DNA from: Anaerolineae bacterium
Lineage (GTDB): Bacteria > Chloroflexota > Anaerolineae > CAZYHC01
Length of the DNA stretch: 64,000 bases
Direction of reading: 5' to 3'
Assembly: GCA_034417895.1 (NCBI GenBank)
Contig: DAOULT010000061.1
Coordinates: forward strand, 22,379-86,378
The stretch's first letter is position 1. Each line of letters starts with the position of its first letter. The position numbers were made by a program, and so were the translations under genes. This document shows positions 11,385-57,510 of this stretch, piece by piece. The notes below the pieces were generated by a model. The model saw nothing but the letters and a program-made list of their open reading frames with translations, was not told the DNA's origin and did not search any database.

Positions 11385-11501
11385 TATTTTTCCAGCCTCC
11401 CACCTGAACTGAATTTCTCATTATTAGTATATCACAAGTGGTCAGGTTTATCAAATAGCAGGTTTTCATGGGGGACAGCTAAAAGCGCCAGGCCCCTGGT
11501 A

Positions 11502-11534
11502 CAAAAAAGGGCGAGGCTCTTGCGAACCTCGCCC
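11502..11534 (-). terminator. Intrinsic terminator after the M4 protease gene; a member of the conserved 3' element family
   Basis: The minus strand reads GCTGCTCCAAACATCCAACGGGCGAGG-ttcgcaaga-GCCTCGCCC TTTTTTGT. Confidence 0.55.
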
Positions 11535-11567
11535 GTTGGATGTTTGGAGCAGAGTTGTGTCCAGCTC

Positions 11568-14500
11568 TCACTTTCGGATAAGGGGCAGATTAACAGAGGG
11601 CTGCCGCACCGTAGTGGTGACCGGGCTGCCCATAGTAGGAGTCACTCCTACGACGTTTGTTATCACCGCCCCGTAGTCGTCGTTAGTGATGAGCGTCCCA
11701 GGGGCTGCATTTTTGTCCACCGTGATCGCGAAGGTCAGGGTGATGCTCTCGGTCGGGCTGATTTCCAGGCCCGACCAGGCCACTGTGTTTGTGGCACTGA
11801 TAAACGTACCACCCTGCCCGATGCTGGCGCAGCAGGTGCTGTTCGCTGGCACGGTATCGGTCACCTGGACGTTGTATTCAGGGATGGTAGGGATGGTGGG
11901 GACGGTTTGTTGCTCAGAAACCTGGCCCGGCCCCGCCCAGCCGTCTGCCAGTCCGCCCGTTGTAGCTCCGCTCGTGGCGGTGAGGACGATGGTGTAGTTG
12001 AGCACCCCGCCCGGAGCCACCGGGTCAGGAGAGTCGCTCTTGCTGATGTCCAGGGATAGGGGGGGCATGACCATAGTGGTCACCGCCGGCCCCCAGACTG
12101 GAGTGGGCACCTGCTCGCAGCATACGCCGCAGATAGTGTTGACGATGGCCTGGCCGCCGGCTAAACTGGAGATGGTCACTGTAAACACGCGATTGATGGA
12201 TGCTCCGCTGGGCAGGCTGGCTACGTTCCAGGTCACGATTCCGTCTGACTCTGTGCCTCCATCGCTGGCCGAGTCGAAGCTGGTGTTAGCGGGTACGGCG
12301 TCGGTGATGACCAGGTTCGAGGCCGGACTCGGGCCGGAGTTGGTGATGGTCAGGGTGTAGGTCAGCAGACTGCCGGCCAGAATCGGGCCCGGTTCCCCGG
12401 CCTTGTAGATGCACAGGCATGGCGGGGGAATGACCGTAGTGGTCACTGCCGTGCCCCAGGTTACAGTGGGCACCTGGTCGCAGCGCACGCCGTAGGTGGT
12501 GTTGGTGATGACCTGGCCGGCGGCTAAACTGGAGATGGTCACCGCAAATGTGCGAGTGATAGATGCCCCACCAGCCAGGCTGGACACCGTCCAGCTTACC
12601 ACATTGCCTGCTGCCAGCGTGCCTCCATCGCTGGCTGAGACGAAGCCTGTGTCAGCGGGCAAAGTGTCGGTGATGACCAGACTGGAGGCCGCGCCCGCGC
12701 CGGAGTTGGCGATGGTCAGGGTGTAGGTCAGCAGGCCACCGGCCTGGACCGGGTCCGGGTTATCGACCTTGGCGATGCTCAAGGATGGCGGGATCTCGCA
12801 AGTGCAGATGCGGAAATCGTCAATGAACCAGCCGTAAGCATCAGCCGAGCTGTCGGTGCCGATGCGGAAGCGGAAGCGCACGTTCTCCCCGGCCAGCATG
12901 CTCAGGTTAAGACGGCTGGAGATGTAGCCGTTGCTTTCCTGGCCAAAGGCCTGTCGCCCACCCAGCGGGTTGCCATAGCCAGTGTAGATGGTTCCCCTGT
13001 AGCCGTTGTGAGTGATCAACGACCCGGCGTCTTGCCACGAGGTGCCGCCATCGGTGCTGTACTCGATCACGCCGCCATCATACATGGTTGTTGCATAATC
13101 TTCGAAGGCGTAGGCGTGGTTGAAGTGCAGGTAGGGCGTGCTTCCGGCTGGCAGGGCCACGTCTGAGGTCATGGCTATGTAGTAGTCGGCGACACTGGGT
13201 TGGTTGTAGCCCCAGAGGTTGTAGACGCCGCTGGTGGCGTAGGTGGCATCGAAGCCGTAGGGATTGGCTGTCTGGGGATAGTACCACTCATCGACTCCGA
13301 CCAGCGCCGCATGAGCCCAGTTGCCGCTGGCTGTGTTCTCCATATCATCAAAGAACAGATTGTTGGGCGACTGTCCGATGGGGCAGATGGAAGACTCGGT
13401 CGCCTGGCATGATGACGGCTGTAGGTTCATCTCCGTGGCGTCCACCGCATCCTTTACCTCCTGGCAATCGGCGGCGGTGATGCCGCTGGTGCCGATCAGG
13501 TTGGTGCACGCCTGTTGCAGGCCGTTGTACAGATCGTTGTAGTCGGCGGCCGAGGTGAACATGTTGGCCTGCACTTCGTAGAAGATCTTGGCTGTTTTGT
13601 CAATGCCGATACCGGCGACGGTGTAGCCGTTGAAGATGTCGCCGTCCACCATCAGGTAGGCGGCTTTGCTGCCGACGCCCATGTTGGTATGCACGCCGCC
13701 GTTGTCCCCTTCGCCACAGTAGTAATAGGTGCTGCCCATTCTATCCGGGTCGCCATGGGCCGGTGGGTTGCTCATGTCGCGGATGGCGCCAATGGGCAGG
13801 TCCTCACCCATCTGCCAGCGGTCGGCCGGCATGTCACTGCCTGCCCCGTTGGTCAGGTCAACGAACTCGCCCCATATATCGGAGAAAGCTTCGTTGACAG
13901 CGCCAGACTGCATGTAGTAGAACAGATGCGAGGCATACTCGGTGACGCCGTGGGTCATCTCGTGGGCCACCACGTCGTCGGCCGCAGCGTAGCCCTCACC
14001 GTAGACCATTTGCTGGCCGTTCCAGAAGGCATTGGCGAAGGGGCAACTGCCTGCGTCCGGGCAGTAGCGCACAGTTTGAGTGAGGGTCATACCGGCGTTG
14101 TCGAGGCTATCCCGGTCATGCGTGTTGTAGTAGAAATCGTACGTGTCGCCGCCGTAATCGTAGGCGTCGTCCGCATCCGGTACACCGGTCGCTGGCCCTC
14201 CCTCGGTACGGACCGGGCCGGTACCAGGCAGACCTGCGGTCCAGTCGTTGTTATTGTCGTAGATCACGCGGTTTCTGGCCACGTCGATCTGGTTGAAGTG
14301 CAGAGCGACCGCCCCGGTGTGGGCATCTATCAGGACCAGTTCGCGGACGGGTTGTAGCTCCACCGGAGTCACTTCCATCCGCCAGACCAGGGCGCTCAGG
14401 TTGAAGCTCGGTCCGAGCAGGATCGGGCTGTAGATCCACAGTTCCGGCTGGCTCACCGTGAGGTCGCCGGCGTTGAGGTCATAGTATTTGGTCACCAGAC

Positions 14501-15041
14501 CACGCGCCAGTTCACGAGCGGTACTTGCCTCCAGCCGGGGGGTGGTGTTCACTTTCAGACCGGGCAGAATCTCCCCGCCGGCGGAGATGACGTTCTTTTC
14601 GGCATCCATCTGGACGATCAGTTCGCCGCCCACCACCGGGATACCCTGATAAACCTGCTGGAAACGGACAAAGGAACGGCCCCGGTCGGCCGATGTGACG
14701 CGCATTACCGTTAGCTCCTGAGCCTGGTCGGTCAGGCCGAAAAGCGGGCCGTAAGTTTCCAGAAACCGCCGGGCGGCCTGCTCTGGAGGGTCTCCCCCTT
14801 GAGGGATGGGGTGGGCCAGGTCGGTGCCGATGAACCGGACCCGGCCGGTTTGGGCGTGATAGGCAATGCTTGCCCGGCCGCCTGTTGCCCGCTGCAACTG
14901 GTCAATCAGGCTTGCGTCTGCGGGAGTTGGCGTTGGTGCCTGAGCAGGGGGGGCGGCTTGTGCGGTGACGAGAAAACCGGGAGAAAGGATCAACAAACTG
15001 AAGCAAACGACAATAGATAGAAAGCGCATTATCAATGACAT
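11568..15041 (-). CDS. Secreted M4 (thermolysin-family) zinc metalloprotease with a propeptide and C-terminal DUF11 repeat domains
   Basis: The ribosome-binding site AAGGAGGAGG precedes the ATG at 15041. It has a signal peptide, the HEXXH motif VVAHEMTHGV and the downstream GAVNEAFSD motif. There are at least three DUF11-type repeats (DNPDPVQAGGLLTYTLTI...). The C-terminus ends in PLIRK. Confidence 0.85.
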   Translation of the reverse strand: MSLIMRFLSIVVCFSLLILSPGFLVTAQAAPPAQAPTPTPADASLIDQLQRATGGRASIAYHAQTGRVRFIGTDLAHPIPQGGDPPEQAARRFLETYGPLFGLTDQAQELTVMRVTSADRGRSFVRFQQVYQGIPVVGGELIVQMDAEKNVISAGGEILPGLKVNTTPRLEASTARELARGLVTKYYDLNAGDLTVSQPELWIYSPILLGPSFNLSALVWRMEVTPVELQPVRELVLIDAHTGAVALHFNQIDVARNRVIYDNNNDWTAGLPGTGPVRTEGGPATGVPDADDAYDYGGDTYDFYYNTHDRDSLDNAGMTLTQTVRYCPDAGSCPFANAFWNGQQMVYGEGYAAADDVVAHEMTHGVTEYASHLFYYMQSGAVNEAFSDIWGEFVDLTNGAGSDMPADRWQMGEDLPIGAIRDMSNPPAHGDPDRMGSTYYYCGEGDNGGVHTNMGVGSKAAYLMVDGDIFNGYTVAGIGIDKTAKIFYEVQANMFTSAADYNDLYNGLQQACTNLIGTSGITAADCQEVKDAVDATEMNLQPSSCQATESSICPIGQSPNNLFFDDMENTASGNWAHAALVGVDEWYYPQTANPYGFDATYATSGVYNLWGYNQPSVADYYIAMTSDVALPAGSTPYLHFNHAYAFEDYATTMYDGGVIEYSTDGGTSWQDAGSLITHNGYRGTIYTGYGNPLGGRQAFGQESNGYISSRLNLSMLAGENVRFRFRIGTDSSADAYGWFIDDFRICTCEIPPSLSIAKVDNPDPVQAGGLLTYTLTIANSGAGAASSLVITDTLPADTGFVSASDGGTLAAGNVVSWTVSSLAGGASITRTFAVTISSLAAGQVITNTTYGVRCDQVPTVTWGTAVTTTVIPPPCLCIYKAGEPGPILAGSLLTYTLTITNSGPSPASNLVITDAVPANTSFDSASDGGTESDGIVTWNVASLPSGASINRVFTVTISSLAGGQAIVNTICGVCCEQVPTPVWGPAVTTMVMPPLSLDISKSDSPDPVAPGGVLNYTIVLTATSGATTGGLADGWAGPGQVSEQQTVPTIPTIPEYNVQVTDTVPANSTCCASIGQGGTFISATNTVAWSGLEISPTESITLTFAITVDKNAAPGTLITNDDYGAVITNVVGVTPTMGSPVTTTVRQPSVNLPLIRK

Positions 15042-15639
15042 GATGTTCCTCCTCCTTTTAATCTAAGGTAGATGATTTTCAAATTTAACTACGACCTGTA
15101 TTCTTATTATAAATCACCTCCTTATCCTGCATGGCAATGCCGTTAACTTGAGGGCCAAGGCGATGAAAACAACAGCCTGACCGCATCCGAAAATCCAAAT
15201 AGATAGCCGTGGAGACAGATTGCCTCTCCACATTCTCGTTGAATCTGGCGCAGCAAGCGAACAGGCGAGACGATATTGTCACCTGGTCTTTAGGCCAATT
15301 CTTAAATTAATGAGATCATATTATCGTCGATGTTCTTTGGGAGATTAGAAGATATTTTGTGGAGTAATTGTAAGACAGAGGAGGTATAATGTGCATTGAG
15401 GTTATGATGTGGCAGAACACAGAGTAGAACGGACAACAAAGCTCTATGCTCGATATAGCTCAAGTGATGGGTACTAGAACAACAGGTCTTCAGAGCCTTT
15501 TAGTACCGCGAAGTTACCAGCGTCGAAAAGAGAGTTTAGCAAATTCCTTTCGTTAGCTTGTTACTAAAATTATAAACCGTCCCCCCTTCAAAGTCAAGAG
15601 CTACAACCTTAAAATTTTGCCTAATTGCCCATTATTAAT

Positions 15640-15713
15640 ATTATACCACAAAAAGGTTATTTTTGGGTAAAGATCAGGTTAAAATTTGGTAAAAAATTTC
15701 AGAACGTATGTTC
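15640..15713 (-). promoter_or_regulatory. Promoter cassette copy B (minus strand) with the GAACgtatGTTC palindrome, located about 600 nt upstream of the protease start
   Basis: The reverse complement reads GTTCTGAAATTTTTTACCaaatTTTAACCtgatcTTTACCcaaaaaTAACCtttttGTGGTATAAT. It is about 85% identical to the copy at 1214-1295. Confidence 0.4.
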
Positions 15714-15728
15714 TAAACATGCTCAATG

Positions 15729-15768
15729 CGCAAACAAACAAAAAGCCCCCGGCCTTAACCGGAGGCTT
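15729..15768 (-). terminator. Intrinsic terminator of the alpha-2-macroglobulin gene
   Basis: The minus strand reads AAGCCTCCGG-ttaagg-CCGGGGGCTT followed by TTTTGTTTGTTTG. Confidence 0.5.
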
Positions 15769-15798
15769 CGTTTGCGCAACAGAACTATTCAAATGGTG

Positions 15799-18700
15799 CT
15801 ATTCGGAGATGGTGAACAGCCGCCCGTCGGAGCGGCCAAACACCTCCGGGAAATACATCTCGTTGGCGAAGGTGGGGATCACCCGGTATTCGCCCGGCAG
15901 GGTGGCGCGGAAGGTGTAGACGTATTCGTAGCTGCCGGCCGGCAGGTAATCGGCGAAGAGCACCATCTTCTCGTCGCGCATCTCGTAGCGGCTGTACCAG
16001 CGCCACCACCACCAGTAGAACTCCCGCCACCGCTCGTTCTGGGATTGGCGGTAGAGGTGAGGATCCCGCTCCAGCAGGCTGGTGGTCGCCAGGCTGGGGT
16101 CGATGGCCTCCGCCCCGGCCGGCAGCGGATCCTCGACGACCACGTAATACAGGTCGTGAGGAGCCACGATGGTCAGCTTGACCTGGATCACGTCGTCGAC
16201 TTTGGCACTGTCCACCTCTTCGCACTCCTTCCCCACGGCGCAGTCGGCCCTGGTGTACTGGCGGTAGACGATGATGCCCCGGTTGATGGGTTCGATGTCC
16301 TCCACGGGCAGGTAGATTTTCAGGTGAGCGGTGTAGTACAGGCGGCCCGGCCCTTCGTAGCGGCCAATGTCCAGTCGGTTGCCCTGGTCACGCAGCAGCT
16401 CGGCCACCGCCACCCGCAGCTTTATGCTCTGGTCCACGTTTTCGGCGTTCACCGCGCCAGAGGCCAGCTCTTCATCGTTGAGGGCGGCGAAGTACTCGTA
16501 CTGGCCCTGAAGCTCGCCGGTTACCACCATCCAGTCGGTCAGGGCGATCAGCGCCCAGGCCGTCTCCTGCGTGGTCTCCCAGATGCCATCCCGCCGGGCG
16601 ACCATCAGCCAGCGCACCACGTTGGGGATCAGGTCGTTGTCCGGATCCAGTTTAGCCAGGGCGTCCAGGATGATGGCCGTAGAACGGGTATCGGTGTTCA
16701 TGGCCCACCAGTCGTAGTGGGCTTCTTCCCAGTGGGCGCCGGTGGCGCTCAGGATGGCGGCGTTGTTGAGGTCGCTCAGGAGGGTGGGGAGGCGGTCATC
16801 GTTGGGGTTAATCAGGTCCAGGGTCATAGCCAGCAAAGCTCGACCGTAGTGAGATAGCTTCTCGCGATTCTCTAACAGGTCGCCGGTGTACTCACTGGCC
16901 CAGGCCGCATTTCCAGCCTCGGCCATAACGTAGAGGATGAACGCCTGACGGTTGGCCTGGCGATAGCCTTTCAGTTCGCGGCTGGTGACCAGTTGACCGA
17001 ACAGGTATTCCAGCCCCCTGGTGATGACCTCTTCCCTCACCTCGAAGCCGGCCTCGCGGGCTTTGTCCATCCCCAGGATTACGTAAGCGGTCAGGTGCGG
17101 GTTGCTGCTGGTGCTTCTGTACCACCACCCCCAGCCGCCATCGTCGTGCTGCATGAGATAGAGCTTGTTCAAGGCCGTCTCCACCAGGTCGGGCAGTATC
17201 TCCTCCAGGTCAGGCCGTTCGATGCCCAACTCACGCAGGGCGCGGTAGGTGAGCACGTTGGGCAGGAACCTGGACACCACCTGCTCGGAACATTCGTAGG
17301 GGAAGTGTTCCAGGTATTTCAGCCCGTCCTGCATCCCCGCGGCCAGAGAGGGATCGAGTTGGATCGTCAACTGACCCTGGCGTTCGTCGTAGCGGGGCGG
17401 CAGGGCTATCACTTCGGTGCGGGTGCCCTGCTCCACCAATTGTCCGCCGGTGCCGACCACCTCCGGGGCAGAGTAGCGATAGACCAGGAGCGTGCCCTCC
17501 GGGCCGGTGGTCAGCCGCGGACGGGCGGCGTCGCTGTATTCCCCGCACACGGCGCTGAAGATCAACTCAGCTTCCTCCACGTCGAGGACGGTCACGTCCC
17601 AGGTCACTTTAGCCTCCCCACCAGCCGGGATGTTGACGGTCTGTTCGGCGTCGCTGTGCAGCTTCAGGCCGCTGGAGCTGAGGGCCACCACGACGTCAAG
17701 GGCCTGGTCGGCGTTGTTGTTGACCAGGGCTGCCAGTTCGGCCCGGTCGTCTACCACGAAGAAGCGAGGGGTGACGGGGCGAACCAGCAGCGGCTTGGTG
17801 ACCAGAATCTCAGAAGTGGCCTCCCCGACCTGGGTGTTGGCGGTGACGGCCACGCCCCGGCATACCCAGGTGGTCAGGTTATCGGGCAGCGGGATCTCGA
17901 CGCTGGCCTGGCCGCTCCGGTCGGTGACTACGGTGGCGTTCCAGTAGGCGGTGTCGGCGAACTCTTCGCGCAGCTCCACTCCCGGCGGAGGCGCGGCCTG
18001 CTTCTCCTCAGCGAATTCCTCGTCTGCCGCCATCCCAGGCGTCATGGTAGCCGCTGGCGCAGGAGGAACCTCCCCCAGCATCATCCCTTCTTCTGCCCCT
18101 CTGGCGTGTTTGTCATACTCTTCGCCCCGCTCTTTGAGTTGTTCCAGCACCAGGCGGTTTATGGAGATAGCCAGGCCGCTGGAAGTGCTTACCCCCAGGC
18201 CCCGCTGGCCGTAGAAAGTGTTGACGATGGCCTCTGGCGGGCGGGGCGAAAGAGTCAGGATAGCTTTATCGACCAGGTCGAGGGAGAAGGCCGCCGCCAC
18301 CGGCTCTCCGGTATGATCGGTGGCCCGCACCTGGTAAGTCACGGTGTCGCCTGGCCCGGCCTTCTCCACGCTGGGGGTCAGGGTGATGGTCAGCTTTTGC
18401 GGCTCAGGATCGACGCTAAAGGCGGCGTAACCGACTTTGTAGTTAGCCACCGGGTTGTCTTCGTCCTGGCCCTTGACGATGACGGCTGAGACGTAGACGT
18501 TGGGCACGTGATCGAGGGTGATGGGCAGCTCGTAGACCTGGCTGTTGCTTTCCAGTTGGAGCACTTCACGATGGATGATGTTGCCCCGCTCGACAGTGAT
18601 CAGAGCATAGTGCTCGCCCTGGAAGGGAGAGGGGATCAGGATTTCAGCCGTCTCTCCCACGGTATAGCTGCCCTTGTCGGCGATGAGGTTGATGCGGTCG

Positions 18701-21700
18701 TTGTTCTCGCGTCGCCAGGAAACGTACTCGCGCCCGCTGACCCACACAAAGATGCTGCTCTGCACCAGGCGCTCGGTGGTGTCGCGCCCGTTGACCACGA
18801 TGCGGTACGATCCGCCTTTGGGCGGGATGAAGGTGGTAACCGCCTCGGCGTTTTGGTCGGTGGTGATGGTCTCCTCAAAGACCAGTTCGTTCACCGTCTC
18901 CCATTTCCAGCGGCCTCCGCCGGCTTCGTCCTCGACGAAGGTGTTGACCCACTCCCGACGGTAAACCTCCACTTTTAGCTTCTGGTTGGGGAACCGCTCT
19001 CCGGCCCAATCGACGGTCACGACGTCCACGGACATCTCTTTTTCGGCCCGCCCGATGTATTGGCGCGGAGCCAGGCCGACGTAAAATTCGCCCTGGTGGA
19101 CGACGATATCCTTCCGACCGGAGATGACCTGGTTGTCTGCGCCGGTAGCGGTGGCTTCCACGATCAGGCGACGGCTGCCCACCGGCCCTTCGCGGTCTGG
19201 AGCGACGGTCAACTGAGCGATGTTGCCCGGCAGCTCGACGATCAGTTGGCCGTTTTTATCGGTGCGCCCCGCCCCGCTGAGCACTACCTGGGGCGGTTCG
19301 GGATACCACCACCAGCAATCAAAGCAAATCCAGGGATCGTTGGTGTCGGTGAATCTGTAGCGACCGAATTGCGGCGGTTTGAAGCGATAGGTTTCGGCCA
19401 TCACGTTCCACTGGACGGGCACGTCTACCACCGGGCCGCCGAAGAAATATTTCACCTCGACGGTGGCCTTAGTAGGCTCTCCGGCCACGACCTCTTCCTG
19501 GTCGGGGGTGACGACCACCTCGAACTCCGGGGGACGATAGGCCGCCACCTGGAAACTGCCGGGGAAGTTAGAGCCTGCGAAGTTAGCCCGAATCTGGTAG
19601 TGGCCCAGAGACGCGCCCCCGGCCAGAGCCAGCTCCCCGTGGAAAGCGCCGAACTCGTCCAACTCCAGTTCCTCGTTATATACCTCCTCCCCGGCGGCGT
19701 CACGAATGGTAACGTACACTGGCTCCAGGTCGGGCAGGCCATAGTGAACGTCGTCTTCGGCGCGGATGATGCCCCGGAAGTACACCGTCTGTCCGGCGCG
19801 ATAGATGGGCCGCTCGGTGTAGACGTGGGCGCGGAAGTCACGCTTATACTCCTGGTTAAAGCCGAAGTCCCAGGACGTGACGCCGGGGTTCCACCCTTCG
19901 CCGCCCATAGTGAAGGGGGCTTCGCTGAGGACGAATATAGTGTTAGAGCGCCCGGAGCCTGTATCGAAGTGAGCCAGCCCATCGGCGTCGGTGGTGGCTG
20001 CGCCCAGCTTGTCTCCGTCCCGGTCGAGGGCCTTGAGTTCCAGGCCCGCCACCGGCCGGCCGGTAGGCAGGTCGGTGGCCCAGGCCAGCATCTCGTCGTC
20101 GGCGATCTTGAGGGTCAGGTTGGTCTCGGACACCACCAGCAGATGACGATGCCACCAGCGTTCGTAGGTCACATCCGGCGAATCGATATCCAAGAGATAG
20201 ATGCCGGACGGCAGCCTTCCCCCGCCTTCGACCAGATCGACGGGCAGGTATTGCTCTTCGTTCAGCGGCGCTTCGACCCACACCGACCAGGCCCGCATCA
20301 GGTCTCTACCAGGCGGGATGAAGTCATACCCCTCTCTCTGGGCCTGGAGGAAGTCATCCACGTCGAGGCCATAGAGCATCAAATCCAGGCGGCTGGTGTT
20401 GAGGTAGGCCACGAACAGGCGAGCCGGGTCGGCGGCGTTGTAGGTGCCCACCAAGCCGGGAACGTGCAGGCGGACCATCGGCTCCAGGGCCGCGGTGGTG
20501 AAGCGCACGGTCATCTCCTGGCCGGTGGTGTTGCCGTAGGGGTCGGCGATGTGGGGGCCGATGTGCACCTGGTAGTCGGTCGAGGGTTGGGGATTGAAGT
20601 AGAGCACAAAACTGTTATCCCAGGTGTCGAAGTAGGTGTAGACCTGGGTAGGCGAGAGCGGCGGGGTCATGGTCAGGTTGCCCATCACCGTGTCGGGGTC
20701 GATGGGGGCGTTAAAATGGATCCTGAAATCGGTGTAGGGATAGGCGTCCTTCGTCCCATCAGGGGGGGAAGTGCCGATGATGCGCGGCAGGGGCGCGGTG
20801 GTGAATCGCCACTCATAGTCAGCGCGCATCCCCTCCCCGCCGGACAGGCTGGTCACCCCGCGGGCGATGCGCACCTCATACGTCTGGTCAAAATCCAGCA
20901 TTTCCTCCGGCTGGAAAACTAAAGTGTTGGTGTAATACTCGAAGTCGCCGATCACCCGGCGGCCATCTGCGGTTTTGAGGCTGAAAGCTTCCTTGAAGGA
21001 TGAGAGGTCTATCGGCTGATTGAACTGCACCTCGATTTTGGTCACAGGGGCCACCAGGGTTTGATCGGTTGAGGGCGTAGTCCAGGTCACTTCGGGCGGC
21101 TGGGTGCTGAAGGTCCAGTCGTAATCTTCTTCCAGGAGGCCGCCGGTAGTGTCGCTGAGGCCGGCCACGACGCGGGCCGTGTAAGTGACGCCTCCGGCCA
21201 GGGGCTTATCCGGGGTGAAGATGTACATGGAGGTGTTCAGCCACTCGCCGCGGCCCGTGACTTGCGGCTCGAAGGTCAGCGGTTGGGGCAGGTCGGCCTG
21301 CTCGTCCAGGGTGGTCAGAGGCACGACGGGGCGGTTGAACATCACCGTCAGGCTGCCATCGGTCTCCACGTCGTAGCTCTCGGGGGCGGGGATGACCTGC
21401 GATACCTCCAGGTAGCCGACGGTGGTGAAGCGGAACGCATAAGTCTCTGCCAGAGAAACGCCGTCAGCGGCTTTGGCTTCCATTCCCAGGCTGACCTTAT
21501 AGGTCGTGGAGCGGGCCAGCGGCTCGGCGGGATAGAAGCGGACTGTCCTCTCGTCGGGCCACTCGAAGCGGCCTGCAACTTCAGGAGCGATGCGGAAAGC
21601 GTTTTCCACCGCAGCCTGATCCATGGCCCGGTCGAAGACCAATTCGACGGGGCCCTCCAGAGGCAACTCCTGGCCGCGCTCAGGCGTGCGCTGGATGACG

Positions 21701-21813
21701 ATGGGGGCCGGAACAGGGCCAGGGGACGCAGAGGTCTTCCTGGGCCGGCCAATGGCCCCCAAAAGCAGGCTGGTCACCACGACCAGCGTTAAAGCGATGT
21801 ACAGGTGTTTCAT
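15799..21813 (-). CDS. Bacterial alpha-2-macroglobulin family protein (about 2000 aa) with N-terminal Big_5/SbsA-type Ig domains and a CxEQ thioester motif
   Basis: The start is ATG 21813 with AGGAGGGAAG upstream and a signal peptide MKHLYIALTLVVVTSLLLGA. The thioester region is LEHFPYECSEQVVSRF. Its size and repeat architecture are typical of bacterial A2M. Confidence 0.85.
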   Translation of the reverse strand: MKHLYIALTLVVVTSLLLGAIGRPRKTSASPGPVPAPIVIQRTPERGQELPLEGPVELVFDRAMDQAAVENAFRIAPEVAGRFEWPDERTVRFYPAEPLARSTTYKVSLGMEAKAADGVSLAETYAFRFTTVGYLEVSQVIPAPESYDVETDGSLTVMFNRPVVPLTTLDEQADLPQPLTFEPQVTGRGEWLNTSMYIFTPDKPLAGGVTYTARVVAGLSDTTGGLLEEDYDWTFSTQPPEVTWTTPSTDQTLVAPVTKIEVQFNQPIDLSSFKEAFSLKTADGRRVIGDFEYYTNTLVFQPEEMLDFDQTYEVRIARGVTSLSGGEGMRADYEWRFTTAPLPRIIGTSPPDGTKDAYPYTDFRIHFNAPIDPDTVMGNLTMTPPLSPTQVYTYFDTWDNSFVLYFNPQPSTDYQVHIGPHIADPYGNTTGQEMTVRFTTAALEPMVRLHVPGLVGTYNAADPARLFVAYLNTSRLDLMLYGLDVDDFLQAQREGYDFIPPGRDLMRAWSVWVEAPLNEEQYLPVDLVEGGGRLPSGIYLLDIDSPDVTYERWWHRHLLVVSETNLTLKIADDEMLAWATDLPTGRPVAGLELKALDRDGDKLGAATTDADGLAHFDTGSGRSNTIFVLSEAPFTMGGEGWNPGVTSWDFGFNQEYKRDFRAHVYTERPIYRAGQTVYFRGIIRAEDDVHYGLPDLEPVYVTIRDAAGEEVYNEELELDEFGAFHGELALAGGASLGHYQIRANFAGSNFPGSFQVAAYRPPEFEVVVTPDQEEVVAGEPTKATVEVKYFFGGPVVDVPVQWNVMAETYRFKPPQFGRYRFTDTNDPWICFDCWWWYPEPPQVVLSGAGRTDKNGQLIVELPGNIAQLTVAPDREGPVGSRRLIVEATATGADNQVISGRKDIVVHQGEFYVGLAPRQYIGRAEKEMSVDVVTVDWAGERFPNQKLKVEVYRREWVNTFVEDEAGGGRWKWETVNELVFEETITTDQNAEAVTTFIPPKGGSYRIVVNGRDTTERLVQSSIFVWVSGREYVSWRRENNDRINLIADKGSYTVGETAEILIPSPFQGEHYALITVERGNIIHREVLQLESNSQVYELPITLDHVPNVYVSAVIVKGQDEDNPVANYKVGYAAFSVDPEPQKLTITLTPSVEKAGPGDTVTYQVRATDHTGEPVAAAFSLDLVDKAILTLSPRPPEAIVNTFYGQRGLGVSTSSGLAISINRLVLEQLKERGEEYDKHARGAEEGMMLGEVPPAPAATMTPGMAADEEFAEEKQAAPPPGVELREEFADTAYWNATVVTDRSGQASVEIPLPDNLTTWVCRGVAVTANTQVGEATSEILVTKPLLVRPVTPRFFVVDDRAELAALVNNNADQALDVVVALSSSGLKLHSDAEQTVNIPAGGEAKVTWDVTVLDVEEAELIFSAVCGEYSDAARPRLTTGPEGTLLVYRYSAPEVVGTGGQLVEQGTRTEVIALPPRYDERQGQLTIQLDPSLAAGMQDGLKYLEHFPYECSEQVVSRFLPNVLTYRALRELGIERPDLEEILPDLVETALNKLYLMQHDDGGWGWWYRSTSSNPHLTAYVILGMDKAREAGFEVREEVITRGLEYLFGQLVTSRELKGYRQANRQAFILYVMAEAGNAAWASEYTGDLLENREKLSHYGRALLAMTLDLINPNDDRLPTLLSDLNNAAILSATGAHWEEAHYDWWAMNTDTRSTAIILDALAKLDPDNDLIPNVVRWLMVARRDGIWETTQETAWALIALTDWMVVTGELQGQYEYFAALNDEELASGAVNAENVDQSIKLRVAVAELLRDQGNRLDIGRYEGPGRLYYTAHLKIYLPVEDIEPINRGIIVYRQYTRADCAVGKECEEVDSAKVDDVIQVKLTIVAPHDLYYVVVEDPLPAGAEAIDPSLATTSLLERDPHLYRQSQNERWREFYWWWWRWYSRYEMRDEKMVLFADYLPAGSYEYVYTFRATLPGEYRVIPTFANEMYFPEVFGRSDGRLFTISE

Positions 21814-21837
21814 TTTCTTCCCTCCTGATCTCAGGTG

Positions 21838-21856
21838 ATCGTGGACGTACCACGAT
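21838..21856. promoter_or_regulatory. Inverted repeat ATCGTGG-acgta-CCACGAT, about 25-45 nt upstream of the A2M start; operator-like
   Basis: It has perfect 7-bp arms and an adjacent GCCATGGC palindrome. Confidence 0.25.
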
Positions 21857-22182
21857 GGCCATGGCGCTAAATCTACCTTAGAGACGTTGGAGCTGGCGAG
21901 AAAGTTCCCCCACGTTGCTGCTGATGGGTGCATTGTACCACAGCCTCTTCAGGGGGTCAAAGAGGACAGCAGGGGCCTGGCACGACGAACGTTCGCTGTT
22001 GAAGTGCCAGGCGGCTGAAAATTGGAAAGTCGGAAAAACGCGAAGAATATGGTATAATGTCAGGCGTGGAGCGGCCATTGACCGGCTCATTCGCAGGGGG
22101 CTGACGGCGAGGTGACACCGCTAGACGAAGGTTTCAATTTCGCATTGTGTTTATCTCCGAAGAGGAGAAAGGAGAAAATAAC

Positions 22183-23892
22183 ATGTACAAACTCATCACC
22201 AAGGGACTGCGTCTACTTTTCATCGTGGCCCTGGCTGCCGGGCTGGCTCTGGGCGCGGCGCCCGTGCCGGTGGCTCACGCCGCTACGATCAATGTCAACA
22301 GCACCACCGATAACACGACCGCTGGCGACGGCACCTGTACCCTGCGCGAAGCTATCAATAACGCCAACGCCGACGCCGATACTACCGGAGGCGACTGTGC
22401 TGCCGGCAGCGGCGCTGACACCATCAGCCTTCTTGCCGGCACCTACACCCTGACGATAGTTTCCACAGACGAAGACGCCAACGCCGACGGCGACCTGGAC
22501 ATCACAGGAGGAAGCGACCTGACCATCCAGGGCGCAGGCGCAGCCACCACCATCATCGACGGCAACGGCAGCGTGACGAATGGCCGTGTGCTCCACATCA
22601 CCATAAGCGACATCACCGTCAGCATAGACGGGGTGACCATTCAGAACGGCAACATGGGAGACTGGGGAGGGGGCATCTACAACCACGGCAGCCATTTGAA
22701 CGTCGCCAACAGCATCATCTCCGGCAACCAGGCAAGCCACCACGGCGGCGGCATCTTCAACTTCGGCGGCACGGCGACCATCTCTAACAGCACCATCTCC
22801 GGCAACCAGACAATACACTACGGCGGCGGCATCGACAACAGCGGCGCGGTGACCATCACCAACAGCACCATCTCCGGCAACCAGGCAAACTGGGGCGGCG
22901 GTGGCATCCGCAACAGCGGCGGCACGTTGAACGTCGCCAACAGCACCCTCTCCGGCAACCAGGCAGACTCTGACGGCGGCGGCATCTACAACGGGAGCGG
23001 CACGACCACCCTGGACAACGTGACGATTAGCGGCAACACCGCCAGCGGCGACGGCGGGGGGGTCACCGGGGACCCCCAATATGGCGGTATAGTCAATCTC
23101 AGAAACACCATCATCGCCGGGAACACCGACACGGGCGGAGAAGCGCCCGATGGTAGCGGGACGCTTACCTCCCTGGACTACAACCTGGTAGGGAACAGCA
23201 CGGGCTGCACCATCACCCTGCAAGCGAACGACCAGATAGGCACCGGCGGCAGTCCCATTGACCCCATGCTGGGACCCCTGGCCGACAACGGCGGCGCGAC
23301 GCACACACACGCCCTGCTCATCGGCAGCCCGGCCATTGATAAGGGCCATTGCACCGACAGCGGCGGCAACCCTGTCACCACCGACCAGCGCGGCGTGGCC
23401 CGGCCACAAGGCGCTACCTGCGACGTCGGGGCATACGAGAAAGCCATTGCGCCTGGCGTGCCAGATTTGTCCATCGGCAAGAGCGCCATCCCTGATCCGG
23501 TGATTGCTGGCGGCCTGTTGACCTACACCATCAACGTGGCCGAAAGGGGCGGCCTGGTAGACGCTACCGGGGTGCAGATGACCGACACCATACCCGCCGA
23601 CACCGTTTTCGCCTGGGCCGACAACGGCGGCTCTCTGGTGGGCGGCGACGTGCTATGGTCGGGCCTGACCATCAGCGCCAGCCAGAGCATCAGCATCGCC
23701 TTTGTAGTGACGGCCAGCTATAGACCCCATGCCACCACGCTCCGCTGGTTCCTCCACAACGATCACTACCAGGCGGTCATCGCTACCACCGCAGGGATAA
23801 GCGTGGTGACAGGCAGCGCCGTGACCACCACGGTACGGGCCATTGGAGCCTATCTGCCCACCATCCAGAGGAACAACGTCATCACGCCGTAA
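22183..23892 (+). CDS. Secreted CSLREA-domain protein with right-handed beta-helix repeats (NSTISGNQA rungs) and a C-terminal DUF11 domain
   Basis: The ribosome-binding site AGGAGAAAGGAG precedes the ATG at 22183. It has a signal peptide, a GDGTCTLREAINNANAD motif, about eight NxTISGNQ(A/T) repeats and a DUF11 motif (PDPVIAGGLLTYTINV). Confidence 0.75.
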   Translation: MYKLITKGLRLLFIVALAAGLALGAAPVPVAHAATINVNSTTDNTTAGDGTCTLREAINNANADADTTGGDCAAGSGADTISLLAGTYTLTIVSTDEDANADGDLDITGGSDLTIQGAGAATTIIDGNGSVTNGRVLHITISDITVSIDGVTIQNGNMGDWGGGIYNHGSHLNVANSIISGNQASHHGGGIFNFGGTATISNSTISGNQTIHYGGGIDNSGAVTITNSTISGNQANWGGGGIRNSGGTLNVANSTLSGNQADSDGGGIYNGSGTTTLDNVTISGNTASGDGGGVTGDPQYGGIVNLRNTIIAGNTDTGGEAPDGSGTLTSLDYNLVGNSTGCTITLQANDQIGTGGSPIDPMLGPLADNGGATHTHALLIGSPAIDKGHCTDSGGNPVTTDQRGVARPQGATCDVGAYEKAIAPGVPDLSIGKSAIPDPVIAGGLLTYTINVAERGGLVDATGVQMTDTIPADTVFAWADNGGSLVGGDVLWSGLTISASQSISIAFVVTASYRPHATTLRWFLHNDHYQAVIATTAGISVVTGSAVTTTVRAIGAYLPTIQRNNVITP

Positions 23893-23924
23893 GGGGTCGG
23901 GCGGGGCTGCTCCACACGTCCAAC

Positions 23925-23954
23925 GGGCGAGGTTGTAGAAGCCTCGCCCGTTTT
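23925..23954 (+). terminator. Intrinsic terminator after the CSLREA gene; a conserved 3' element family member
   Basis: GCTGCTCCACACGTCCAACGGGCGAGG-ttgtagaag-CCTCGCCC GTTTTGT. Confidence 0.55.
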
Positions 23955-24137
23955 GTATCAGCAGAGCAGACACGGATTAGGATCACGGATTTCACGGATT
24001 GGAGTCGCGGATTCCACAAAGAATCGGTGAAGAAAATCCGTGTTGGCTGCGGCGGGCAATCGTCCTTGTCAGAAAGGGAAAAATATGGTATCCTCTGATT
24101 GGAGGAGAGATCAAAAGCGAGAACGAAGGAGTATGCA

Positions 24138-25355
24138 ATGTCAACCAAAGACTTTCCGGGCAGGGGCAAAGTAGCCATCCTCAAAACCCATCCTGACACC
24201 GTGCTGGAGGACTACCGCCGCCTGATGCACCTAGCCGGCTATCAGGAAGCCCTGCCCCAAGATAAAGAGACGATCCTCAGGATCAACATCTCCTGGCAAC
24301 AGTGGTATCCGGCCTGTTCCACCGTCCCCTGGCAATTGGAAGGGGTCATCAAGACCATGCTGGCCGACGGCTACCAGGGTTTAATCGCCGCCCAAAACCG
24401 TACCGTGGTGGTGGACGCCTACGTCGCGGAGCGCAACAACAAGCACAAGCTGGTGGTCGAAAAATACGGTTTGCGCAACGTCCATCTCTACGAGCCGCAG
24501 GTGGAATGGGTGCACTACGAACCTGAAGAGCCCTTCCTGGCGCTGCACGACGTCTATCCCGAAGGGCTTAAAATCCCCAAGATGTTCATCGGGCGCAACG
24601 TGATCCAGTTCCCTACGGTCAAGACCCACGTGTTCACCACCATCACCGGGGCGATGAAAAATGCCTTTGGCGGGTTGCTCTCGAACAGGCGGCACTGGAC
24701 ACACGGCGTCATCCACGAAACCCTGGTCGATCTGTTGAGCATCCAGCAGGATATCCACCCCGGCATTTTTGCCGTCATGGATGGTACCTTTGTGGGCGAC
24801 GGGCCCGGCCCGCGCGCCATGCGCGTCTTTGAGAAGAACATCATCCTGGCTTCGGCCGACCAGGTAGCCATCGACGCCCTCTCGGCCTATATTCAGGGCT
24901 TCGATCCCCTGAACATAGGCTTCATCCGCCTGGCCCACGAACGAGGGTTGGGAGTGGGCGACATGCGCGATATCGAGGTGGTGGGAGACGTGGACATCGA
25001 GAAGATTCGCTGGCAGGCCGAGACGGGCGATACCTTCGCCAGCCGGGGACAGAAGCTCATTTACTACGGCCCCCTGAAGCCCTTCGAGAACTTCCTGTTA
25101 CGCACTCCGCTGGTACCCTGGTCGTATCTGGCTTCGCGGGGCTATTTCGATGGTTTCTGGTATCCCTGGGTCGGTAACAGGCGGGTACAGGCGGCCCTGA
25201 ACACCAAATGGGGGCGATACTTTGCCCGGTACGGCGACGTTCCAGCGATCACCGAGCCCCTTTACCAGCCCTGGATGATGGGCCTGATTGCGCTGGGGGC
25301 CGGGCTTATGACCTTAGGCTGGTTGCGGTTGCGGGGGCGGAAGAGGAAAGGATAA
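24138..25355 (+). CDS. DUF362-family protein with a C-terminal transmembrane helix
   Basis: GAAGGAG precedes the ATG at 24138. The DUF362 assignment rests on overall similarity and is uncertain. The tail LIALGAGLMTLGWL is hydrophobic. Confidence 0.55.
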   Translation: MSTKDFPGRGKVAILKTHPDTVLEDYRRLMHLAGYQEALPQDKETILRINISWQQWYPACSTVPWQLEGVIKTMLADGYQGLIAAQNRTVVVDAYVAERNNKHKLVVEKYGLRNVHLYEPQVEWVHYEPEEPFLALHDVYPEGLKIPKMFIGRNVIQFPTVKTHVFTTITGAMKNAFGGLLSNRRHWTHGVIHETLVDLLSIQQDIHPGIFAVMDGTFVGDGPGPRAMRVFEKNIILASADQVAIDALSAYIQGFDPLNIGFIRLAHERGLGVGDMRDIEVVGDVDIEKIRWQAETGDTFASRGQKLIYYGPLKPFENFLLRTPLVPWSYLASRGYFDGFWYPWVGNRRVQAALNTKWGRYFARYGDVPAITEPLYQPWMMGLIALGAGLMTLGWLRLRGRKRKG

Positions 25356-25544
25356 TTGCGTCCCCGATGGTCTGATCGAGCGTGTGATTTCAAGATGCCG
25401 CCGCCATCTTTGCAGGCCCAATCGGAGTAATGAGCCATACCATATATAGGCTCAAAACGCTGAGCGAGCCAACATCTAGTGGTTTCTCTCGCGGCCAAAG
25501 GGCTGATGAAGACCAGGCAAGCAAAAGCAAGCGAAAATCAGCTA

Positions 25545-25573
25545 TTGACATGGGACGCATTTCGTGGTATACT
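25545..25573 (+). promoter_or_regulatory. Sigma70-like promoter TTGACA-17-TATACT, leaving a leader of about 350 nt before the small DUF11 gene
   Basis: TTGACAtgggacgcatttcgtggTATACT. Confidence 0.4.
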
Positions 25574-25888
25574 AAAGTCAACTTTCAGCAATAAACTGTG
25601 CATTTGTATCCTTACGGCTTTGCGGAGCGGAGCGGCTACGCCCCTTGTTGTCTTTTCATAAATTGATCTGGCTCTGGCTTACTCCACCTGCCTGAGGGGA
25701 GGAGAGCAGCGATGACATATGTTGTCGTCATGACCGGGGCCAGCGAAGACAGTGGGGGTGTAAAGCTTTGGTAATCTCTGAGAAAGATAAATGAAAGGAG
25801 GGAAAGAAAAGGTTACTTACACCGGTTTATTGTTAAGGAGGTAAAGAAAAGGTACAACAGGCGACTGTCAAGAAAGACCAGACGAGAT

Positions 25889-25906
25889 AGAACAGTTGAC
25901 TGTTCT
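25889..25906. promoter_or_regulatory. Inverted repeat AGAACAG-ttga-CTGTTCT next to the CTTGTACAAG palindrome, immediately upstream of the ribosome-binding site of the small DUF11 gene
   Basis: It has perfect 7-bp arms. A 10-bp perfect palindrome follows 1 nt later. Confidence 0.3.
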
Positions 25907-25927
25907 TGTACAAGAAGGAGGAAAGTT

Positions 25928-26554
25928 ATGCGTAAAACAAAAGACAATGCTAAATTCCCCTCAGGTTTATCTATTCTAATCGTCGTGGGCCTGGCCCTGG
26001 TTATGCTGCTTGCGGCCAGACCTACCGTCTGGGCTACGGGAGAGCAACAGACTATACCTACTATACCTACTATACCGACCATACCCTCTCCACTGACCAT
26101 CACCAAGACCGACTGTCCTGATCCGGTGGAGCCAGGCGCTATTCTCAACTACACCATCGTGGTCGCTGCCGTGGCCCCTGTCGTACCGGACGGGCCAGCA
26201 GACGAGTGGGCGGGGGCAGGGCAGGTTAGCTCTCGGCAGACCCTCCCTTACGGCATAGTGGTGACCGACGTCGTGCCGGCTAACACCACTTTCTCCAGCG
26301 CCGATAGCGGCGGCACGTACATCAGCGCCACAAACATGGTGGTCTGGTCGGGCCTGTCAATCACCGCCGGCGAGAAGATCACTGTACAGCTCAATGTCCG
26401 GGTCGCCCAAGGTCTATCCGTGGGAACGGTTCTCGAGAACGCCTACTACGGGGCGATGGTAACAAACACCGCGGGAGTGAGTGCTACGGTGGGTGTCCCG
26501 GTCACCACTACGGTGGCGTGGAACCCTCTGAGGCTGCCTCTCATTCGGAAGTAA
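25928..26554 (+). CDS. Small secreted DUF11-domain protein, a paralog of the protease C-terminal domain
   Basis: The ribosome-binding site AAGGAGG is present. It has a signal peptide, a TIPTIPTIPTIP repeat and PDPVEPGAILNYTIVV. The C-terminal 100 aa align with the C-terminus of the 11568..15041 protein, and both end in LPLIRK. Confidence 0.7.
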   Translation: MRKTKDNAKFPSGLSILIVVGLALVMLLAARPTVWATGEQQTIPTIPTIPTIPSPLTITKTDCPDPVEPGAILNYTIVVAAVAPVVPDGPADEWAGAGQVSSRQTLPYGIVVTDVVPANTTFSSADSGGTYISATNMVVWSGLSITAGEKITVQLNVRVAQGLSVGTVLENAYYGAMVTNTAGVSATVGVPVTTTVAWNPLRLPLIRK

Positions 26555-26591
26555 GAGCCGAGTATAGCTGTAGCTGCTCCAAACATCTGGC

Positions 26592-26627
26592 GGGCGAGGT
26601 TTCAGGACCTCGCCCGTTTTTGTTGTT
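26592..26627 (+). terminator. Intrinsic terminator; a conserved 3' element family member
   Basis: GCTGCTCCAAACATCTGGCGGGCGAGG-tttcaggac-CTCGCCC GTTTTTGTTGTT. Confidence 0.6.
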
Positions 26628-26762
26628 GGGGAGGTCTTTTTCCTGCTTTCACACAAACCACCTCCCGGGTATCTTGTCCAACGTTTCCTGGCAAGAAGTC
26701 CGCCAGGAAAGCCCTTGCTCCTGGCTTCGGCAATGACGGCGACGACAACGACGCAAGCGAAT

Positions 26763-51540: not shown

Positions 51541-51600
51541 AAGCTACGTAACAGGGGCCTGGCGCTTTAGAAGCGCCAGGCGATTGGAGAGGAAGCAACC

Positions 51601-57429: not shown

Positions 57430-57510
57430 TCTCCTCCCAGGGGCCTGGCACTTCCAAAGGGCCAGTCACCTGAGTCAAATAGACGCGCCTTCTTCCATCA
57501 TGGGTTAAAC

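Follow-up and report, generated by a model that had tools for sequence, protein, structure and literature searches.

The window, a 64,000-nt stretch of Anaerolineales DNA (contig CAZHQI010000007.1 of the MAG GCA_964534025.1, here the source genome), contains three genes that encode DUF11 proteins with signal-peptide-like N-termini (Table 1). The products are a secreted M4 (thermolysin-like) peptidase, a CSLREA/choice-of-anchor-Q/DUF11 protein and a small protein of 208 amino acids. These gene identities are as a sequence-only reading of this DNA had described them, and so is an LPLIRK C-terminus on two of the products, here the peptidase and the small protein. The CSLREA protein ends in a longer form of the tail, LPTIQRNNVITP. 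DUF11 is named CLIPPER in current Pfam and is an isopeptide-bonded extracellular Ig-like domain (PMC12617251). The M4 peptidase gene adjoins a gene for a 2044-aa bacterial alpha-2-macroglobulin-like protein (locus 11568-21933, minus strand), so that a protease lies beside a protease-trap protein. The macroglobulin-like gene has its own, unrelated terminator.

We found that each of the three DUF11 genes is followed by one copy of the same element. The window consensus is CTGCTCCAmACrTCyrrC-GGGCGAGG-loop-CCTCGCCC-T4-6, with three copies and none expected by chance. A 27-mer comprising the flank and the left stem arm (GCTGCTCCAAACATCCAACGGGCGAGG, up to 3 mismatches) matched exactly three sites in the window, 11527-11553(-), 23906-23932(+) and 26573-26599(+), and gave 0.00 matches in dinucleotide-preserving shuffles. 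The hairpin pattern GGGCGAGG-N8-10-CCTCGCCC occurs in the window only at these three sites. A covariance model of the element, R1, recovered three full elements at 72-75 bits (Table 1), within a few bases of the positions at which the sequence-only reading had placed them (11502-11560, 23905-23957 and 26570-26628).

Table 1. Features of the window, and REP-like repeats at other loci
Feature	Coordinates	Strand	Details
M4 peptidase gene, CLIPPER/DUF11 domains	11568-15041	-	PF02868, PF01447, PF01345; identical to P0002
M4 peptidase tail codons LPLIRK	11571..11588	-	stop codon 11568-11570; post-stop block GAGCTGG 11561-11567, tentative 5' arm of P1
Element copy 1 (flank, terminator hairpin, U-tract)	11498..11556	-	3' of M4 peptidase gene; R1 73.7 bits, E=6e-15; terminator scan 11 pairs, loop of 4, tail TTTTTTGTAC; hairpin -22.4 kcal/mol
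Copy 1 conserved 5' flank TCTGCTCCAAACATCCAAC	11535..11553	-
Copy 1 hairpin GGGCGAGG-TTCGCAAGAG-CCTCGCCC	11509..11534	-	upper stem reaches GCAA tetraloop
Macroglobulin-like gene	15799-21933	-	terminator 15742-15769
CSLREA/choice-of-anchor-Q/DUF11 gene	22147-23892	+	database start gives 569 aa (P0003)
CSLREA tail codons, long form	23854..23889	+	stop codon 23890-23892; post-stop block GGGGTCGGGC 23893-23902
Element copy 2	23903..23959	+	3' of CSLREA/choice-of-anchor-Q gene; hairpin 23925-23949; R1 75 bits; -19.1 kcal/mol
Small signal-peptide CLIPPER/DUF11 gene	25928-26554	+
Small DUF11 protein tail codons LPLIRK	26534..26551	+	stop codon 26552-26554; post-stop block GAGCCGA 26555-26561
Element copy 3	26570..26626	+	3' of small DUF11 gene; hairpin 26592-26615; R1 72.6 bits; terminator scan 13 pairs; -18.3 kcal/mol
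REP-like repeats, window	21970-22017, 51552-51583, 57438-57472	+
REP-like repeat, window	11485-11498	-
REP-like repeats, L063	7038-7075, 7715-7750
REP-like repeats, L062	5248, 8066, 10411
REP-like repeats, L065	4636, 7856, 13501

Read 5' to 3', the element family begins with the stop codon and a semi-conserved block (GAGCCGGGC or GGRGTCRGGC); after a spacer that varies in length come an 18-nt flank, a stem, a variable loop and GTTTTTGT. The flank follows the pattern CTGCTCC-A-n-A-C-r-T-y-C-A-r-C. Within it we distinguish the distal CTGCTCC, CAAACATCC, and the A/C-rich stretch CUCCAAACAUCC. The stem consists of 8 bp (GGGCGAGG/CCTCGCCC), extended to 11-13 bp by U-G and U-A pairs at the top and A-U, G-U or C-G pairs at the bottom. 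A U-tract, GTTTTTGT or a near variant, directly follows the stem in all 12 copies that we describe below (T-tract column identity 0.81). The hairpins of these copies have energies of -15.3 to -22.5 kcal/mol, with GTTTTTG after each. The GC-rich stem, the U-tract and the sense orientation at the end of a unit bear out the earlier view of this hairpin as a terminator, at which the transcript would end.

The three window 3' regions are homologous at the DNA level from the last beta-strand of the domain to the T-tract, with the tail codons and the stop codon included. The copies had been called nearly identical, which holds for the flank and the stem arms. It does not hold for the loops (TTCGCAAGAG, TTGTAGAAG and TTTCAGGA), the post-stop spacers or the sequence beyond the T-tract, which all differ from copy to copy. 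Promoter-like sites, belonging to the next gene, lie just downstream of each of the three window copies, and none was found just upstream of them. Rfam gave no match at gathering score across the whole window, and none on the elements at E<=5 (within 11400-26750).

Copies in two genomes

We used a concatenated C-terminal-region query to find the closest tail-bearing homologues, and fetched the DNA surrounding them. There are 12 copies in all, eight in the source genome and four in a second, related Anaerolineales MAG, GCA_964646625.1 (R1 scores of 48-79 bits). The sequence-only reading had named absence from relatives as evidence against a regulatory RNA element; the element is present in this second species. 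Eleven of the 12 copies start 8-39 nt 3' of the stop codon of a tail-bearing gene, on the sense strand, and the 12th is a relic without a gene. No further copy was found in the ~262 kb scanned from the two MAGs.

The element is tied exclusively to the tail-bearing gene class. Among the closest homologues fetched, every gene with the tail LP[LVIT]I[RQ][KR]... has a copy behind it. The genes with the element include those for a C1 peptidase (P0008, ..YLPVIRK), an S8 peptidase (P0017, ..YLPIIRKQ), a reprolysin-like protein (P0019, ..HLPLIQK), an SBBP protein with CLIPPER (P0004, ..VNVPLIRK) and a small protein (P0001, ..NLPLIRK). In the second MAG they include two genes for PD40/Tricorn-like proteins (P0014, ..YLPTIQKSYVITP; P0035, ..YLPTIQRNLVITR) and a partial SBBP ORF on L028 (..LLPLIQHNSVITP). 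The N-terminal parts of the element-bearing genes are diverse: M4, C1, S8, reprolysin-like, SBBP, beta-helix/CSLREA and PD40.

The relic (L012, 7466-7660, minus strand) is a full element ~140 nt after an ABC-permease gene, with no tail-bearing gene. Decayed tail-like sequence and a second, hairpin-less fragment (GGTCCAAACATAACGCTCCCCGCCGTT) lie ahead of it. It is probably left over from a lost gene, or is a tandem copy, and would now act as the terminator of an unrelated operon. In L062, from the second MAG, a 578-aa gene is followed by a decayed copy of which the right arm alone is left, beside an inserted repeat.

Some related genes carry the tail and lack the element. Three are in one genome: P0049 (..YLPVIWK), where the next gene starts within 30 nt, P0055 (..LPTIMKTS), and P0112 (..LPAVMKTYNP), which has a different terminator of its own. 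The gene for a distant Anaerolineae protein, P0065 (..FLPLIIKK), has an unrelated terminator instead. A JGI relative, P0009 (..LPIILKSY), has an A/C-rich UTR with neither the element nor a hairpin. In a JGI metagenome, a related gene with the tail has a hairpin-free 3' UTR (L067, 2890-2960) containing a long A/C-rich, G-poor stretch (GCCAACCAACACAACAGACCAATCACATAACAC) that resembles a Rho-loading site.

Wider searches found the element in no genome beyond these two. Of 27 matches to CTGCTCCANNNNTCNNNNGGGCGAGG in 185,579 species-representative genomes, 25 were chance and two were real (right stem arm present); both real matches are in GCA_964646625.1. All 26 matches in a relaxed scan of JGI metagenomes were chance hairpins, and a plasmid search returned only a 25-nt coincidence in Azospirillum hutX. 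A viral scan for the bare hairpin found the stem in 93 contigs and the flank in none of them, indicating that the stem sequence alone is commonplace. Within the source genome strong terminators are rare. In a crude census of terminator-like sites (perfect 8-bp stem, 197 kb), 7 of ~13 distinct hairpins were from the element family, and no other stem sequence recurred at separate loci. The source genome has a Rho gene, and presumably most of its other genes rely on Rho or on weaker termination signals.

Conservation and predicted RNA structure

We found that the flank is more conserved than neighboring synonymous sites. As a yardstick we used the 60 codons ahead of the stop codon in the 11 tail-bearing genes and calculated mean pairwise identities. 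Identity was 0.61 at codon positions 1 and 2 and 0.53 at position 3 (0.45 between the two genomes). It was 0.97 in the stem arms, 0.66 in the 13-nt linker, 0.43 in the 8 nt 5' of that linker (partly inside the flank), and 0.28 in the 40 nt downstream of the element. In a hand-corrected register, the 18 flank columns had an identity of 0.73, compared to 0.54 for 56 third-position columns (Mann-Whitney p=0.0005). This supports the earlier claim that a bare terminator does not account for the conservation of the flank, and neutral descent does not account for it either. Flank identity was at least equal to that of codon positions 1 and 2 (p=0.05), and was 0.75 in the distal 10 nt versus 0.70 in the proximal 8 nt. 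It was uncorrelated with third-position identity (r=-0.06). Between genomes, pairs had identities of 0.64 in the flank, 0.96 in the stem and 0.45 at third codon positions. The flank and the stem are under purifying selection, and neutral sites have drifted. Read-through translation of the flank was considered and rejected, as its frame relative to the stop codon differs between copies.

The sequence-only reading had also proposed recent duplication of a tail-plus-3'UTR module. The tail and the 3' UTR are indeed inherited as one module, found behind 11 genes with different N-terminal enzymes. However, the duplication is not recent, as judged from diverged loops, unequal spacers and third positions that are only ~0.53 identical. 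The loops between identical arms cannot be aligned across subgroups, and the post-stop spacer varies in length and sequence. Some paralogue pairs are closer at synonymous sites (up to 0.81-0.89). Exact recent duplication with no covariation had been named as an outcome against a regulatory element; the copies are not exact, and stem covariation is itself minimal.

The stem is paired in 95.5% of cells across the 12 copies. Seven of 13 pairs are invariant, one pair is A-U in ten copies, G-U in one and G-C in one, and in the lower stem four A-to-G changes keep pairing with U. Stem covariation in the 12 copies was not above that in shuffles, because variation is so scarce. G-U pairs are tolerable on the sense strand only, which indicates that the element is read as RNA in the direction of the gene.

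The order of bases in the flank adds to predicted stability. In 11 of 12 copies, the flank, hairpin and U-tract together were more stable with the real flank than after the flank was shuffled (mean z -1.1, t-test p=2e-4; the copies are not independent). The stabilization comes from AAC/GUU and ACA/UGU pairs with the U-tract, an effect like that of an A-tract.

A second helix, P1, is tentative. In all ten aligned copies, RNAalifold pairs the post-stop block (GAG-CGG) with the distal flank (CTGCTC) over 6 bp. P1 cells are paired in 90% of cases, versus 32-54% when the partner columns are slid, and L031 has one compensatory pair. Single-sequence z-scores for P1 were not significant in 8 of the 9 copies that are free of an inserted or longer hairpin there, and its covariation was not above shuffles (116/500). 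In L062 and L063 the position of P1 is taken by a longer hairpin, which is an inserted REP in the former and an unrelated 11-bp stem in the latter. An outer helix joining the distal flank to bases 3' of the U-tract, initially suggested by alifold, was no better than shuffles or genomic controls and was rejected. We also considered whether the flank has a seed-like unpaired state. It is conserved, but the predictions place some of its bases in pairs with the U-tract or within P1.

Candidate functions of the element

On balance, and with modest confidence, we favor the notion that the element is a lineage-restricted, family-specific terminator/3'UTR module in which the flank is an accessory to folding and termination. 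The inherited unit would comprise the last CLIPPER/DUF11-like domain, a short disordered tail (LP(L/V/I/T)I(R/Q)(K/R/H), in some cases extended by N-x-V-I-T-P), the stop codon and the 3' UTR. Within one Anaerolineales lineage, this unit would have been shuffled onto many different secreted enzymes and adhesins. The 3' UTR would act in cis, as a strong Rho-independent terminator and a protector of the 3' end. Its invariant 8-bp GC-rich stem, extended to 11-13 bp, would be followed by the U-tract, where transcripts would end. The stem-proximal flank bases (..ACA..AAC) would act like an A-tract by pairing with the U-tract (GUU..UGU), and the distal CTGCTC would pair with the post-stop block GAGCCGG to form P1. 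With both pairings, the mRNA would end in two hairpins with an A/C-rich linker between them. We infer that the flank is selected for its effect on termination efficiency or mRNA stability, and not for contact with a binding partner.

The element resembles known intrinsic terminators with pairing between an A-tract and a U-tract, in that a GC-rich hairpin and then a U-tract follow the stop codon in the sense orientation, and A-rich bases on the 5' side complement the U-tract. It differs from them in that the stem sequence and an 18-nt flank are conserved over 12 non-orthologous loci, in two species and in one gene class. An A-tract usually accounts for ~8 nt, and the distal flank of the element lies beyond this. 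The distal flank is as conserved as the proximal flank, which exceeds what A-tract pairing covers and is not fully explained by the terminator account. The near-invariant stem sequence likewise exceeds the need of a generic terminator and may point to sequence-specific recognition. Together, these two features leave room for a binding partner or an sRNA derived from the 3' UTR.

There is accordingly a smaller, appreciable chance that the flank is a post-transcriptional site for a regulon of secreted proteins. It could be the seed of an sRNA family, or a docking site for an RNA-binding protein, sRNA or RNase that co-regulates or localizes the mRNAs. Such a site would fit the purifying selection on the flank, its independence of synonymous divergence, the distal bases that U-tract pairing leaves unexplained, the conserved sequence of the stem arms, and the confinement of the element to one functional gene class. 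Known sRNAs derived from 3' UTRs, such as CpxQ, SroC and DapZ, have an unpaired conserved stretch directly 5' of the terminator. The element would match this layout where its flank is unpaired. Like these sRNAs and the UCCCC anti-Shine-Dalgarno sequence in the Staphylococcus aureus icaR 3' UTR, the element has a conserved, perhaps partly unpaired stretch (containing CUCC) 5' of a terminator on envelope or secreted-protein mRNAs. The element differs in having at least 12 copies per lineage, versus one locus for each of these systems, and in that no target or 5'-3' pairing was found in 262 kb or in its own 5' UTRs. Complementary sites in the 262 kb were only the antisense strands of the elements themselves. 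In 8 of 10 genes, the flank paired with random genomic segments as well as it did with the gene's own 5' UTR or ribosome-binding site, and the 5' regions of these genes have no common motif apart from a strong GGAGG. The missing upstream promoter-like sites at the window copies and the lack of an Rfam match also count against a regulatory site. A more specific version, which we think rather unlikely, is that CUCCAAACAUCC and the invariant hairpin form a 3'UTR "address label" on mRNAs of LPxI(R/Q)K-tailed exoproteins, to be bound by a dedicated RNA-binding partner or released as a multi-copy sRNA family. If this were true, expression of the exoprotein class would be coupled to machinery that recognizes the tail, and Chloroflexota would have a post-transcriptional regulon defined by 3' UTRs.

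The conservation might instead be historical, the tail and UTR having spread by duplication, gene conversion maintaining their likeness and the flank hitch-hiking with the hairpin. We consider this quite unlikely. Nearly absent stem covariation and the close synonymous sites of some paralogue pairs would suit it. So would loop subgroups that cut across tail types (CSLREA TTGTAGAAG versus P0019 TTGTAGAAAG; M4 TTCGCAAGAG versus P0017 TTCGCAGGAG), which hint at exchange between copies, and gene conversion may have contributed. However, a conversion tract would homogenize the loops as well, and diverged loops sit between identical arms. The post-stop spacer also differs in length and sequence, and between genomes the flank and the stem are kept while third positions drop. 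Very unlikely, in our view, is insertion behind these genes of a REP-like or MITE-like mobile palindrome that carries a guide flank and is acted on by a Y1 transposase. The conserved arms, variable loops, conserved 5' flank and position just after genes resemble REP/BIME elements, which can terminate or stabilize transcripts, and both genomes hold a genuine REP-like family and the relative a Y1 transposase gene. In contrast to REP/BIME and RAYT systems, the element has a low copy number, a strict orientation (12 of 12 copies), a strict gene class (11 copies at a near-fixed distance from the stop codon) and no link to the Y1 transposase. A different palindrome, GGTGCCTGGCAC..GTGCCAGGCACC, lies on either side of that gene (Y1_Tnp, L063 7094-7675). 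The copies of the element remain homologous further upstream, within the coding tail, and so share descent instead of having arisen by insertion. We found neither terminal repeats nor target duplications at the copies, and none of the 93 viral contigs with the same stem shares the flank. We give least credence, very little indeed, to a DNA-level recombination site like an integron attC that swaps the 3' ends of genes. Its position at gene 3' ends, with the module on many different genes, would fit, and roughly half of the copies have ATCCAAC, which matches the R'' consensus RYYYAAC. On the right side, GTTTTTG departs from GTTRRRY, and the short stem is perfectly paired and free of extrahelical bases. 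There is no integrase gene in the flanking regions examined, and substitutions that preserve G-U pairs point to RNA and to one strand.

The terminator module remains the simplest reading that accommodates these observations. The element is a clean case of a non-coding 3' segment that is more conserved than neighboring synonymous sites, in at least 12 genes of one secreted class and in two species. To our knowledge, very little is known about RNA-level regulation and transcription termination in Chloroflexota. The element is a candidate for asking whether pre-terminator sequence does more than aid hairpin formation, and the covariance model is ready for scanning Anaerolineales genomes. Even if it is only a strong terminator, it could serve as an annotation marker and as a genetic part.

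The protein tail and a separate repeat family

A by-product of the analysis is a widespread, unannotated C-terminal motif of Chloroflexi surface proteins, which may be more interesting than the RNA element. The motif [LFIMV]P[LIVTAMF][IVLTAMF]x[RK] is present in the last 18 residues of 79 of 121 proteins (P0001 and the 120 matches to the concatenated query), in most cases with 0-3 residues after it. The chance expectation, from the rest of the sequences, is ~0.001 matches per protein. In the form [YFL]-L-P-[LVIT]-[IVLA]-x-[RK] followed by 0-7 residues, with no transmembrane segment after it, it occurs in CLIPPER/DUF11 proteins of many Chloroflexi. The tail motif is thus widespread in Chloroflexi CLIPPER proteins, far beyond the lineage with the RNA element. 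It is covered by no Pfam or NCBIfam model, and a text search of the literature found no paper on it.

In the last 60 codons of the 11 genes, replacement sites of the C-terminal domain change nearly as fast as silent sites (0.61 vs. 0.53), and the six-residue tail is fixed. An AlphaFold model of the small window protein has a mean pLDDT of 70.6. Its last strand finishes with VTTTV (192-196), and the tail (197-208) is a low-confidence coil outside the fold, which is more consistent with a linear recognition motif than with a structural strand. The tail looks like an undescribed sorting or recognition signal. Like the LPXTG/sortase and PEP-CTERM/exosortase signals, the protein tail is a short conserved motif at the extreme C-terminus of unrelated secreted proteins. 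In contrast to them, it is not followed by a transmembrane helix or basic anchor, and the protein ends 0-7 residues on. In L065 (10001-13483), 30 nt separate the P0049 gene (..YLPVIWK*) from a downstream PqqD/radical SAM/SPASM gene. We take radical SAM/SPASM proteins to be the kind of enzyme that modifies peptide termini, and a link of this gene to processing of the C-terminal tail is possible.

Both genomes also contain a separate family of REP-like palindromes, (C)AGG(G/T)GCCTGGCAC-loop-GTGCCAGGC(A/G)CC (Table 1). Two of its copies in L063 flank the Y1 transposase gene, the classic REP/RAYT arrangement. A conserved block downstream of some copies of the element, CAGGGGCCTGGCG, proved to be a neighboring REP-like repeat and lies outside the element. 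REP-like copies or half-copies lie directly downstream of three of the terminator elements (the window M4 copy, L060 and L028), and one lies inside the L062 3' UTR.
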